This document shows, piece after piece, positions 3,952 through 25,075 of a DNA stretch of 25,075 nt. The position numbers and the translations under genes are program-made. Positions within the stretch are counted from its first letter, which is position 1. Every line of letters begins with the position of its first letter. The stretch spans positions 1 to 25,075 of the forward strand of contig JAYVPP010000056.1 in assembly GCA_043757305.1 (NCBI GenBank), written 5' to 3'. The notes beneath the pieces are model-generated. The model saw only the letters and a program-made list of their open reading frames with translations, did not search any database and had not been told where the DNA came from. This DNA comes from Candidatus Kaiserbacteria bacterium. GTDB taxonomy: Bacteria > Patescibacteriota > Minisyncoccia > Phycocordibacterales > UBA918.

Positions 3952-4711
3952 CGAGTGGCGGTTGCTCATTCTGTTCGCTTTTCTTATGGAGCGCTCGCAC
4001 AAGATACTCCTGCACGATGCCCATGATATTGGACACAATAAAGTAGAGCGCGACGGTTGCTGACGCCGAGTACGCAAAGAAAAAGATAAGAAGCGGCATT
4101 ACATACCGCATCTGTAAATGCATACTTTGTGCAAAATCATCTTTAAGCGAGGGTTTGTCACCCTCCTTTCGTGCAGCTGGTTTTGGAAACGTGAGATAGA
4201 CTTGAAAAAATTGTGTTGCACCCGCAAGAGCAGCGAGAAAAATATTTTTAGTCGCAATATTAACAAGATCGAGAAACAGCATCGATGTTGTGTGCGGTGC
4301 GCTAATGAACGAATACAAAATTGCGGTGTTGATATCAGGGAGATGAATGCCGTTTCGAGTATACACCGAAAGGTACAACGCGATGACTACCGGAATCTGT
4401 ATAAAGAGCAGAGCGATACTCGCAAATGGATTTACCTTTGCGTGCTTATAGATTGCAAACGTTTCTCGAGCAAGTGTTTCGCGATCATCTTTATAACGCT
4501 CTTTGAGCTCGGCGAGCTTTGGTTCAATAGCACGCATTGCATGCTGCGTGCGTGCGGCCTTAATAGAGAGGGGGAGGAGCGCAACTTTTACACAGACAGT
4601 GAGCACGATGATAGCGATACCGACATCCCCCCGAGGTACTACATCGATTAAGAAAACAAGCCCGTTGTATATAGGGTCAAAGAAAACTGTATGCCAAAAA
4701 GTAGAAATCAT
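3932..4711 (-). CDS. yidC: Membrane protein insertase YidC (short form without a large periplasmic domain)
   Basis: GIAIIVLTVCVKVALLPL, IEPKLAELKERYKDD, NPFAS..LFIQIP, ALYFIVSN; position after rpmH-rnpA. Confidence 0.95.
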   Translation of the reverse strand: MISTFWHTVFFDPIYNGLVFLIDVVPRGDVGIAIIVLTVCVKVALLPLSIKAARTQHAMRAIEPKLAELKERYKDDRETLARETFAIYKHAKVNPFASIALLFIQIPVVIALYLSVYTRNGIHLPDINTAILYSFISAPHTTSMLFLDLVNIATKNIFLAALAGATQFFQVYLTFPKPAARKEGDKPSLKDDFAQSMHLQMRYVMPLLIFFFAYSASATVALYFIVSNIMGIVQEYLVRALHKKSEQNEQPPLATEAAV

Positions 4712-22631: not shown

Positions 22632-23030
22632 TCATTCCAATAAGCCCAATGGCGTACAGTCCTTTATGATCTCCCCGGCAAATTCTTTAAAAGTGCCACC
22701 GTATTCCCATTGTGGGTTATTGCAAAACCTCGGACAGTTTGTGTTGCCCACGGTTTGTGCGTAGCCAGGTATGAGACAATTACCGCCCAATCGCCAATCG
22801 GTACAAATCTGTCTTCGGCGCTCAAAGACATGGTACAGAGTGAACACACCGCATTTTACTCGCGATATCTTTCCAGCGACTTTCACCACCTTCACAATGT
22901 TTCCCTTGAAGACAATATCTCTGCCGACTCTTATCACTTGACCGTCTTCAGAATATGCAACACTAGTCCAAATCATTGCGCATACAAATGCCAAAAAACC
23001 CGTCCGCTGAGTTATGAATCGCTTCCCCAT
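22632..23030 (-). CDS. Small secreted cysteine-rich protein
   Basis: SD AGGAGG 10 nt upstream; signal peptide ending SVAYS|E; six Cys in the mature part (C60, 76, 85, 99, 103, 125). Confidence 0.7.
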   Translation of the reverse strand: MGKRFITQRTGFLAFVCAMIWTSVAYSEDGQVIRVGRDIVFKGNIVKVVKVAGKISRVKCGVFTLYHVFERRRQICTDWRLGGNCLIPGYAQTVGNTNCPRFCNNPQWEYGGTFKEFAGEIIKDCTPLGLLE

Positions 23031-23066
23031 AAAACGAACTCCTCCTGTCCATGATATGATCCATAG

Positions 23067-23261
23067 ATGAAATTCACTAGAATGACAATTCTATGGATTG
23101 TGTGGGTATTGTTGCTCGGTCCTTTGGTCGCATGGCAACTATATTCGATAATTTCCAATCTGACGTTTGGTTCATGGTTCCGAGACATACTTTCCGCAGT
23201 GGTGCCAGTTGGAATATATCTGGGAGTAATGTGGATTTTTGAGCGAAAAATATCAAAATAA
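23067..23261 (+). CDS. Small two-TM membrane protein
   Basis: 64 aa, two hydrophobic helices and a basic C-tail (ERKISK); TGaTATGAT extended -10 lies 6 nt before the ATG. Confidence 0.7.
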   Translation: MKFTRMTILWIVWVLLLGPLVAWQLYSIISNLTFGSWFRDILSAVVPVGIYLGVMWIFERKISK

Positions 23262-23276
23262 GACGTGGTTCGCTGC

Positions 23277-23431
23277 CTACTGGCGGTCATTAAGAATGAA
23301 GAAAAGTTCAAGAAGTGACTTATTTTGAATCAAAATATCAGTAGCATTAAGCAACTTCTTCATCTCGGCAGCGTGTTCGATGTGTGCATATAGTCTTTCC
23401 GGAAGGAGTTGCTGTATTCAATGCGTTGCAT
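23277..23431 (-). pseudogene. Frameshifted, truncated YafQ/RelE-family toxin remnant
   Basis: Frame A gives MQRIEYSNSFRKDY; the shifted frame gives AHIEHAAEMKKLLNATDILIQNKSLLE. Together they resemble the YafQ N-terminus. The DH(P/A)L...CHI catalytic half is absent. Confidence 0.5.
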
Positions 23432-23504
23432 TTGGAGTAACAGCTATGGGTCTCTGCCTAATGCAGCTTCAACTTAACTTTCTAGTCTTATAGGCACATA
23501 GCTT

Positions 23505-23538
23505 AAGCCGCCCAAAAATCTGGGTGGCTTTTTATTTT
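23505..23538 (+). terminator. Intrinsic terminator
   Basis: AAGCCGCCCA/TGGGTGGCTT 10-bp stem (1 G-U) followed by TTTATTTT. Confidence 0.7.
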
Positions 23539-23613
23539 AGGAGGCTGTTTCCGTTATTAGCACGAGTTTACGCGAAATTCTGACATGAGAATTCGACATT
23601 TGGGGCCTTCTTG

Positions 23614-23686
23614 TCCGCCCGGCAGGAATCGAACCTGCGACCATCTCCTTAAAAGGGAGCCGCTCTACCGACTGAGCTACGGGCGG
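23614..23686 (-). tRNA. tRNA-Lys(UUU)
   Basis: CCGCCCG TAGCTCAGTCGGTAGAGC G GCTCC CTTTTAA GGAGA TGGTC GCAGG TTCGATT CCTGC CGGGCGG A; 73 nt, CCA not encoded. Confidence 0.97.
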
Positions 23687-23918
23687 GAATGAGGACGGAT
23701 GAAAAAGTTTACTTTTTCATTTTGTCCGAATGAACCGCCAGCCGTGCGAAGCACGTCAGGGCGGAAGTGAGGATGAGTAGAAAAACAAGTTTTTCTATAT
23801 CGTCCGAATGAACCGCCTGGAAGCCTTGCTTACAGGGCGGGGTGTTGTACTGACACCGCCAGCCGTGCGAAGCACGTCAGGGCGGATATTCTTTTGTACA
23901 TACCGCCGAAAGGGCGGT
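23687..23918. repeat. Array of hairpins with shared stems and constant linkers upstream of tRNA-Lys
   Basis: Four ACCGCC-x-AGGGCGG units (23734, 23812, 23855, 23902), two carrying the identical 18-nt insert AGCCGTGCGAAGCACGTC; GTCCGAATGAACCGCC twice, 78 bp apart; GAATGA linkers at 23687, 23728, 23806. Confidence 0.85.
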
Positions 23919-23955
23919 TACCATTCAAAAACTTCCGTATTTGAAGTGCCCCGAA

Positions 23956-23983
23956 AATATACCACAAAATCAGTTTCTGTCGA
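23956..23983 (-). promoter_or_regulatory. Candidate promoter for the hairpin array / tRNA-Lys transcript
   Basis: Minus strand TCGACA-N16-TATATT with an extended -10 TG; predicted TSS near 23949. Confidence 0.5.
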
Positions 23984-24063
23984 TTTTTTACGATGGTAAA
24001 AATGCGCGGTCTTGTCCCCGTTTTCTAGAGGGAAATTGAGCCATTTGTTGGTAGAATGAGGGC

Positions 24064-25075
24064 ATGGATATGAAGACGCGAGTTTTTATAGTGGGACTCG
24101 TTTTCTGTGTGTCTGCAGGAGTTGCCACAGTCTACCGAGATGCGCATACGTTTACACTTGGCACTGATGCAGAAACACCGATCCAAATGGCTACAGGTGG
24201 CGTGGTCATCACGGGAAATAATGAGGATTCGAGCTCTGCTTTAGAAGGTGCGGCCCCTGCGGAGAGCGGACAAGTCCTCGGCGCATATACCGTCACCGCC
24301 CCACGTTTTATCGAGTCGATTACAAAGACTGTCGCAGGACAAACAAAAAACCCGCTCACCCTTCAAGAACTCTTTTCTAAAAAGCATTTCGTTTATGCTG
24401 ACGTTCTGGGAGTGGGGAGCGACTACGTTGCCTCACTTACTGGCAAGGGTCTGCAGATAGTGGGCGGCAAGCTCACCTGCGCACCCGCGGGTGACAATAC
24501 ATACGGTTGTATCAACGGCAATACTCTCGACCGTCTCAGTGGAAAAGTAAGCGGGACGGATATTTCAAGCTCTGCGTCATTGCGCTCCCTCATTCAGGAT
24601 GAAACTGGCACTGGCAATATTGTATTCAATACCAACCCCTCTTTGAGTGGCGTGGTCTTGACGGACATTGGCACAAGCACACTTCTTGCAACTGACGGCA
24701 GTGGAAAGGTGGTGGGTACCACCACACCCACACTCGCAGGGCTTGTCGTGACGGGAGCTGCAACTTCCATATTTGCGAGCGGTATTGATCTTACAACCGG
24801 ATGTTTTTCTATAAACGGCACATGTCTCGGTGGCGGAGGTGTCCTCTCCATAAACGGACAAGGGGGTGCTGTAGTTCAGACGTTTGCATCGACCGCAAGT
24901 GGCACCGACTTCTCGATCGCCACATCAAGCAATACGTTCACGTTTAATCTTCCATCAGCAAGTGCGAGCAACCGCGGACTTCTTCTCTCTTCAGATTGGA
25001 ATACGTTTAATGCTAAACAGAGCGCAATCACTCCCGGCAGCCTCCTCTCATTTTCTGGTGCAACGCTCAACTCCA
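24064..25075 (+). CDS. Large Ser/Thr/Gly-rich surface/adhesin-like protein, 3'-truncated (absent from the ORF track)
   Basis: 337 open codons from ATG 24064 to the edge. N-terminal TM/signal (VFIVGLVFCVSAGVATVY), GQVLGA, DETGTGNIVFNTNPSL, TGCFSINGTCL, QTFASTASGTDFSI..FTFNLPSASASNRGLLLSSDWNTFNAKQ. Confidence 0.85.
   Translation, partial: MDMKTRVFIVGLVFCVSAGVATVYRDAHTFTLGTDAETPIQMATGGVVITGNNEDSSSALEGAAPAESGQVLGAYTVTAPRFIESITKTVAGQTKNPLTLQELFSKKHFVYADVLGVGSDYVASLTGKGLQIVGGKLTCAPAGDNTYGCINGNTLDRLSGKVSGTDISSSASLRSLIQDETGTGNIVFNTNPSLSGVVLTDIGTSTLLATDGSGKVVGTTTPTLAGLVVTGAATSIFASGIDLTTGCFSINGTCLGGGGVLSINGQGGAVVQTFASTASGTDFSIATSSNTFTFNLPSASASNRGLLLSSDWNTFNAKQSAITPGSLLSFSGATLNS

Follow-up and report, generated by a model that had tools for sequence, protein, structure and literature searches.

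In Escherichia coli, the tRNA-linked repeats (TLRs) comprise 22 units in tRNA and rRNA operons, which lie downstream of a gene and repeat its last 18-19 nt, most of them without a known function (PMC8144298). In genomic habit, the TLRs are the system closest to the repeat units described here, which were found in the leader of a tRNA-Lys gene. In both cases, the units are restricted to operons of tRNA and rRNA genes, include an exact short copy of one end of a neighboring stable-RNA gene and are co-transcribed with it, the latter being likely for our units. Unlike the TLRs, however, the units studied here reside upstream of the gene, repeat its first 6-7 nt in sense and antisense, contain a conserved hairpin core and are inserted DNA in relatives.

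The closest kinds of element are TA-flanked MITEs and structured repeats, i.e., the TA-target MITEs (non-autonomous IS630/Tc1-mariner derivatives), the Correia/NEMIS elements and the Rickettsia palindromic elements. The likeness comprises a short, non-coding, multi-copy and patchily distributed sequence that forms a long imperfect palindrome, the occurrence of both empty and filled sites, flanking TAs, copies in tandem or nested in one another, and a tolerated insertion in transcribed non-coding stretches. Unlike in those elements, an additional hypervariable hairpin lies outside the palindrome, the outermost arms vary and equal tRNA nucleotides 1-7 in one family, no transposase with matching ends was found, and the copy number is only 1-19 in genomes of 0.5-1.2 Mb. 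REP, BIME and REPIN sequences, with palindromes of 20-40 nt, show some resemblance to our element in their conserved mismatches, a GTAG-like flank (here read along the tRNA, where it may simply be tRNA sequence), a fold biased to one strand and a vertical persistence in intergenic DNA. They differ in that the element studied here has no linked or co-distributed RAYT, is longer, compound and TA-flanked, has a low copy number and, in the family of the window, is bound to tRNA genes. Lastly, the attL/attR duplicates of integrative elements also place a partial tRNA gene copy beside an intact gene, but these are usually 3' parts of tens of nucleotides at kilobase islands with an integrase, whereas here the 5' 7 nt flank units of 75-95 nt. 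In these terms, the element is MITE-like with an unusual adaptation to tRNA genes. Literature searches returned no description of such elements in Patescibacteria.

Repeat units in the leader of tRNA-Lys

The window, i.e., the whole stretch of 25,075 nt analyzed here, is contig C56 of an 833-kb, 114-contig and 93%-complete genome (G000) of a Candidatus Kaiserbacteria bacterium, whose relatives have genomes of 0.5-1.2 Mb. Its minus strand encodes tRNA-Lys(UUU) at 23614-23686 (ARAGORN; Rfam tRNA, 71.5 bits), which starts with C1 and does not have its CCA encoded. A consensus scan identified a candidate promoter on the same strand at 23956-23983, with a -35 element TCGACA (23978-23983), a spacing of 16 nt and an extended -10 element TG-n-TATATT (23956-23964). 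This promoter-like site (23983-23956) is almost letter-identical in a syntenic metagenome contig from a relative (L094), which carries the same promoter and tRNA and a neighboring protein of 71% identity. We infer that the ~260-nt leader is transcribed from this upstream site and is simply removed through an RNase P cut at position +1 of the tRNA; a gene for RNase P RNA was found in the genome.

A preliminary description of the window, made from its letters only, had reported a chain of hairpins joined by a 6-nt linker in this leader. The chain is real, and all of its coordinates proved correct. Comparison across copies (see below) showed that a unit of ~75-95 nt consists of a TA, a variable hairpin (S), a 6-7-nt arm (a'), a pyrimidine linker (L1), an AT-rich hairpin of 29-36 nt (H), a second linker (L2), an arm (a) and another TA. 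In the fold that is conserved among 18 aligned copies, a' is base-paired to the arm a located behind L2, and the resulting helix P1 closes over L1-H-L2. The halves a'-L1-H(5') and H(3')-L2-a are inverted repeats of each other and form a compound palindrome of ~63 nt, with S lying outside on one side and the outer arms differing between copies. In most copies, the palindrome is followed on the tRNA strand by (G)TAG, which is also the native sequence of tRNA nucleotides 7-10. The hairpin that the preliminary description had termed U corresponds to an alternative pairing, in which a' engages an extra sense copy of a located upstream.

On the plus strand, the linker GAATGA occurs at 23687-23692, 23728-23733 and 23806-23811, with the variant AAGTGA at 23765-23770. 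The motif CCGCCC, i.e., the first six letters of the tRNA, opens five units within leader and tRNA, namely U0, U1, U2, U3 and the tRNA itself, all read on the minus strand. U0 (23903-23917) is a shrunken fold-back formed by CCGCCC, a 4-nt loop and GGCGG. As the first copy of tRNA nucleotides 1-6, it probably shows where the 5' end of the tRNA originally lay with respect to the promoter. In L094, a complete a-S-a' hairpin takes its place, with a similar spacer behind it. U1 (23856-23885) is a solo a-S-a' hairpin with a CGTGC/GCACG inner stem in its S and without L1-H-L2 behind it. U2 (23813-23840) combines a sense arm a (CCGCCC), TG-TA, an S hairpin of the AAGC/GCTT type, which is present in many other copies of the family, and the arm a' (GGCGG) of the distal full unit. 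The core of this distal unit (23755-23820) spans a', L1 (TCATTC, 23806-23811), H1 (23771-23805), L2 (TCACTT, 23765-23770) and a (CCGCCC, 23759-23764). H1 together with its L2 is the part that most closely matches the single unit of L094. U3 (23735-23764) is the a-S-a' hairpin of the proximal unit, and its a doubles as the right arm of the distal one. The sequences of U1 and U3 agree fully over 32 nt (23855-23886 and 23734-23765, respectively; repeat D2, 100%). The core of the proximal unit (23677-23742) runs from a' over L1 (TCATTC, 23728-23733), H2 (23693-23727) and L2 (TCATTC, 23687-23692) into a (23680-23686), which is at the same time nucleotides 1-7 of tRNA-Lys, and TAG (nucleotides 8-10). 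The gene itself hence supplies the right arm of the proximal unit, and T8A9 of tRNA-Lys is the TA that flanks it.

The earlier description is to be corrected in two points, as CCGCCC opens five units, and as the partner of the GGCGG arm in the fold conserved in the family is the CCGCC located downstream, beyond L1-H-L2 (P1), and not solely the upstream copy. H1 and H2 contain perfect inverted repeats of 9 and 10 bp with differing sequences (I8, I5), and a block of 59 nt recurs with a period of 78 nt at 71% identity (D1). Leader and tRNA together (361 nt) fold with a z-score of -4.9 relative to dinucleotide shuffles, and the P1-plus-H fold of the proximal unit is predicted on both strands. A covariance model built from a' to TAG (R1) scored the proximal unit with 79.4 bits and the distal one with 58.7 bits, corresponding to genome-wide E-values of ~5e-19 and ~5e-13, far beyond chance. 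In contrast to a further suggestion, a degenerate tandem of tRNA genes, only nucleotides 1-7 and the TA are repeated; D-, anticodon- and T-arm homology is absent from the units, and ARAGORN and Rfam report a single tRNA in the region. An Rfam cmscan of 22800-24400 on both strands (E up to 1) returned only the tRNA and two chance-level matches; the element has no Rfam family.

Two full and three partial units are present at tRNA-Lys in the window, compared to one full unit and one solo U hairpin in L094, while G001 and G002 of the same genus possess a plain short tRNA-Lys leader without units. By this comparison, the array of the window represents an expansion.

A separate stretch near the locus lies on the plus strand at 23365-23535, opposite to the tRNA strand. 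Here, ~140 nt with no clear ORF are enclosed by a promoter-like site (23365-23394) on one side and a strong intrinsic terminator (23505-23530, followed by a T run) on the other. This stretch may be a small RNA gene; its sole Rfam match is a weak one to RcsR1 (E = 0.26).

Occurrence, insertion sites and mobility of the element

R1 detected ~19 copies in the 833-kb genome that contains the window. Within the family of the window, 86 of 100 genomes possess the element with 1-19 copies per carrier, and in other families of the class it was found in 27 of 150 genomes with up to 13 copies. Outside of the class, a phylum sample of ~144 genomes yielded 6 weak single matches. The element is thus short, non-coding, multi-copy and patchy across related genomes. 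Among the carriers, G004 from the family of the window was deposited under the name Candidatus Kaiserbacteria, and others under Parcubacteria or Paceibacterota.

Simple pattern scans of the own genome had found the combination of U hairpin, H hairpin and linker at tRNA-Lys alone; R1 later placed the repeat family at tRNA and rRNA loci. Inspection of the leaders of all 30 tRNAs reported by ARAGORN revealed the same module upstream of the Arg-gcg, Arg-tcg, Pro, Asp, Ala and Phe tRNAs, and in each of these leaders the outer stem copies the first 6-7 letters of the respective tRNA. Relatives carry the module in front of Ile, Asn, Asp, Gly, Met, Ala, Arg-tct and Lys tRNAs. A device specific for lysine, such as a decoy for an anticodon nuclease, was therefore dismissed, as the module is found in front of many tRNAs. 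Several genera carry modules at the same set of tRNAs (Arg-gcg, Gly-tcc, Ala, Met and Asp), which could reflect a long retention and, with it, some use.

In the own genome, all copies lie either in the gene for 23S rRNA or no farther than ~320 nt from a tRNA gene. Seven copies abut nucleotide 1 of a tRNA, and others are second-tier tandem copies. Three reside in the D-loop (GG/TA/GAGC) of truncated tRNA copies, which closely precede the intact Ile, Trp and Gln genes, and two precede the variable-loop TAGGTC of 3'-part tRNA copies behind tRNA-Thr. One copy apparently sits in the P6 region of a group I intron of the 23S rRNA and is kept in three other genomes. Across the loci of the family, arm a starts exactly at nucleotide 1 of a same-strand ARAGORN tRNA in 18 of 29 cases. 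In five further genomes, this applies to 13 of 33 matches, and the remaining 20 are found either on the tRNA side of a partial tRNA copy or no more than 625 nt away from a tRNA. Other families of the class present a different picture, with 9 of 10 loci being ordinary intergenic DNA in either orientation relative to the neighboring genes. The preliminary description had named dispersed copies without a link to tRNAs as contrary to its reading; copies of this kind occur in other families, where they are intergenic and in both orientations, but not in the own genome, where all are at tRNA or rRNA genes.

The 23S rRNA gene mentioned above (L082:981-4869) spans 3889 nt, compared to 2925 positions of the model. 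One insertion (L082, ~4200-4560) contains the core motifs of a group I intron, S-type AAGATATAGTCC and R-like GTAGAGACTACA, and the copy of the element is found at 4413-4479. Between the 23S and 5S genes of the same contig (C110), Rfam reports a 96-nt tRNA (L082:4974-5069, 52.5 bits) that was missed by ARAGORN and has an apparent insertion of ~22 nt in its anticodon region.

Of the two letters after the element, the first is T in 101 and the second A in 107 of 113 distinct copies. Within tRNA genes, T8A9, T20A21 and the TA of the variable loop serve as insertion sites, and in the family of the window the element occupies T8A9 with tRNA nucleotides 1-7 as its right arm. A TA also precedes S in most copies of the family.

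Direct evidence for mobility comes from g91, a genus of another family of the class, which provides the one empty site at base level. Here, the copy in G183 (L090) was compared to the congeners G410 and G411, in both of which the flanks are contiguous and the 75-nt unit is missing. The insert in G183 comprises S, a', L1, H, L2 and a, with an ambiguity of 2 nt (TA) at the junction, which may reflect a duplication of the target or microhomology. Thus, the whole unit from S to a is inserted DNA flanked by TA. Copies at unrelated loci of this genus are 88-95% identical over the conserved part, and all six copies inspected have TA on both sides, including the one before S, and each a different, perfectly paired S. 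At locus L245 (G410:C44:6850-7140), a copy with different arms is nested at a TA inside the H loop of another copy. On the basis of the empty sites, the nearly identical copies elsewhere and the nested insertion, we conclude from the sequence comparison that the element most probably is a TA-flanked, MITE-like mobile element.

The S hairpin itself deserves a remark. At L241-L245 and L090:1486-1501, both its sequence and its length differ from copy to copy, yet it is always a near-perfect palindrome with a stem that starts with TATAC; the remainder of the element in these copies is 88-95% identical.

In the own genome, copies are merely 70-83% alike apart from local tandems, and recent jumping is therefore not seen. 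Its activity may be old, or the sequences may be saturated with change. A nearest-neighbor analysis of the L1-H-L2 cores placed 19 of 52 cores next to one from the same genome, compared to 10.6 expected, much of which stems from tandem copies, and revealed no grouping by tRNA identity and no clear one by genome.

Considering these observations, the leader of tRNA-Lys is likely a head-to-tail pile of a small, non-coding, TA-flanked mobile element that sits at T8A9 of the tRNA, employs its nucleotides 1-7 as right arm and is tolerated. The option of a REP-like element expanding at the tRNA, which was among those offered in the preliminary description, comes closest to this reading, as the element is a multi-copy, patchy and insertion-polymorphic structured repeat.

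Strand tests and candidate partners

An element that abuts tRNA genes might instead act as a cis-acting leader RNA of the pre-tRNA, in which a' pairs either with the upstream decoy or with tRNA nucleotides 1-7 and thereby gates formation of the acceptor stem and cleavage by RNase P or RNase III, or protects the 5' end. Several observations would fit such a role: in the family of the window, the element is always in tRNA orientation when abutting a tRNA, its arm matches whichever tRNA comes next, and the same tRNAs carry it in several genera. The base pairing of the element covaries. For P1 and H, 84% of the cells are paired in the aligned copies, compared to 59% in shuffles and 40-48% in controls with a slid partner. 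Pairing of the stems looks maintained, but R1 picks up well-paired copies only, which introduces an ascertainment bias. Double changes occur in 19 of the 21 pairs of P1 and H, and two extra covarying pairs (AT/AT, GT/AC, AC/GT, GC/GC) were found inside the linkers.

The nature of the substitutions, however, argues against selection on an RNA of the tRNA strand. In the stems of the 113 copies read on this strand, we counted 2042 Watson-Crick, 32 G.U and 116 A.C pairs (88 A.C pairs without one doubtful pair). At sites that alternate between A-T and G-C, the A.C intermediate is ~4 times as frequent as G.T, the reverse of what would be expected. The compensatory changes that had been noted for the hairpins are real as covariation, but are almost purely of the Watson-Crick type. 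The opposite strand folds better in 104 of 113 copies, with a mean of -24.9 kcal/mol compared to -20.0 kcal/mol for the tRNA strand; in a control, the sense strand was favored in 22 of the 30 tRNAs of the own genome. This bias is a family-level result under RNA parameters; with DNA parameters, the strand difference of the two units in the window is small (1.4-2.2 kcal/mol for P1-H) and mixed for the U hairpins. The linker letters T14, C15, T81 and C82 are invariant in 113 of 113 copies. As a constraint, they might speak for the leader RNA, but when read on the tRNA strand, they result in pyrimidine-pyrimidine mismatches, and the other strand has a tandem G.A motif in their place.

Further points against the leader RNA are that other families carry the element in non-tRNA intergenic DNA in both orientations, that tRNA-Lys genes of the same genus do without it, and that the empty sites and the nested copy identify it as inserted DNA. 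As the A.C pairs outnumber the G.U pairs and the opposite strand folds better, a leader RNA is probably not the selected function, and we judge this explanation to be improbable.

The same data bear on RNase P- or RNase Z-processed minihelix RNAs, the option favored in the preliminary description, which would mimic acceptor stems as decoys for anticodon or acceptor-stem nucleases or serve as substrates for CCA addition or aminoacylation. The a-S-a' hairpins indeed begin with the 5' strand of their own tRNA and have an L2-like leader before them. Their outer stem, on the other hand, is only 5-7 bp long, contains an internal loop and lacks discriminator and CCA. The upstream copies decay, as seen from an extra T in the window and substitutions in the Gly and Ala cases, and copies in D-loops, the intron and non-tRNA DNA lack the upstream sense copy. 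With the strand tests also contrary to selection at the RNA level, such minihelices found no support and are hardly credible.

A preference for the bottom strand could instead point to an element of the REP/RAYT or IS200/IS605 (PATE) kind, in which the opposite strand folds as single-stranded DNA and a Y1 HUH enzyme cuts beside a tetranucleotide (CTAC or TTAC) 5' of the hairpin. The biased fold would agree with this proposal, as would the tandem G.A motif formed by the invariant letters and the GCGAAGC mini-hairpin sequence noted in the preliminary description, both of which lie on the bottom strand. In addition, the own genome encodes a solo IS200-type Y1_Tnp gene (L172:583-1038, contig C64), a 151-aa ORF with 135 bits to PF01797. 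This gene, however, is not flanked by the element, and Y1_Tnp, present in 60 of 101 family genomes, is unrelated to presence of the element: it occurs in at least 9 of 14 genomes without the element and is missing from many that are rich in it. Thus, we rejected a Y1/RAYT partner. Furthermore, TA is found on both flanks, and the ambiguity at the junction resembles a duplication of the target, something that elements of this kind do not produce. A single-stranded hairpin element therefore appears distinctly improbable. A second, weak Y1-like match is a 267-aa ORF on contig C67, and Y1-like ORFs of ~225 aa recur in the family.

Coming back to the reading as a TA-flanked mobile element, an IS630-type DDE_3 transposase was sought in five genomes as an autonomous partner with matching ends, and none was found. 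The searches detected no DDE_3 in G000, G183, G410 and G125, and the single copy in G411 has unrelated ends.

Fitting of the arms to tRNA genes

As the element occupies T8A9 with nucleotides 1-7 as its right arm, the tRNA behind it is still complete. The original nucleotides 1-7, which are displaced by the insertion, stay upstream as the sense copy, and their pairing with a' gives rise to the U hairpin. The array may have been built and reshuffled through several insertions at this TA or through unequal recombination involving the L2-a-TA repeats. With the leader removed at position +1 of the tRNA, the element would be tolerated rather than used.

Simple transposition, however, does not account for the match of the arms to tRNA genes. 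In the family of the window, the arms equal nucleotides 1-7 of at least 12 different tRNAs, whereas in genus g91 they are borne by the element and are unlike the target flank. Arm-guided targeting is unsupported in this genus, where the arm has no match in the 7 nt ahead of the TA. Arms that do not match would, on the other hand, destroy a single-copy tRNA when inserted at T8A9, so that some step must fit them to the gene. As candidates, we consider a templated palindrome correction from the displaced copy, a capture of nucleotides 1-7 as right end followed by local re-insertion, or an arm-guided choice of the target. The arm a' itself is the complement of the tRNA 5' strand. A copy of the 3' acceptor strand was rejected as its source, since three tRNA-Ala have C and not a U70-type T opposite G3; the G.U positions of the Arg-tcg and Asn tRNAs also contradict it.

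A bolder version would be a 'self-healing' insertion, whose arms consist of nucleotides 1-7 of the host tRNA and their complement and whose ends are rewritten for each target, such that it can sit in, leave and re-enter T8A9 without breaking the gene. The rewriting might be achieved through a templated fold-back, a step of palindrome correction or pairing of the arms to the target. We regard this version as unlikely, although it has more than a token claim. To our knowledge, no transposon has been described whose ends are rewritten to match each target.

In either case, an insertion that is tolerated would have consequences beyond this locus. It would unify many odd 'structured leaders', 'acceptor-stem mimics' and 'broken tRNA copies' beside the tRNA genes of ultra-small bacteria as a single family of mobile elements, and it would illustrate how genomes in which every tRNA gene is single-copy tolerate insertions within the first ten letters of the gene. 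It also serves as a warning, as covariation in such units would be poor evidence for a functional RNA. If matching of the arms were part of the insertion mechanism, it would represent a new route by which mobile DNA targets essential genes safely. From a practical perspective, the units also confuse tRNA finders and assemblies, and several tRNA genes are located near contig ends here.

Other tRNA leaders contain repeats of other kinds that likewise copy the 5' end of a tRNA. At Val-tac and Gln-ttg, two tandem leader units start with the first 10-12 nt of the tRNA. Upstream of Lys-ctt and of many tRNA-Lys(UUU) genes in relatives, we observed a '5'-half-like' unit that consists of a copy of the acceptor/D-arm, an unrelated hairpin and a copy of the anticodon loop. 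Leader repeats of these other kinds are located on the G000 contigs C9 (~1490-1596), C44 (~2003-2112) and C101 (~1497-1606) as well as at L004, L007, L015, L024 and L029.
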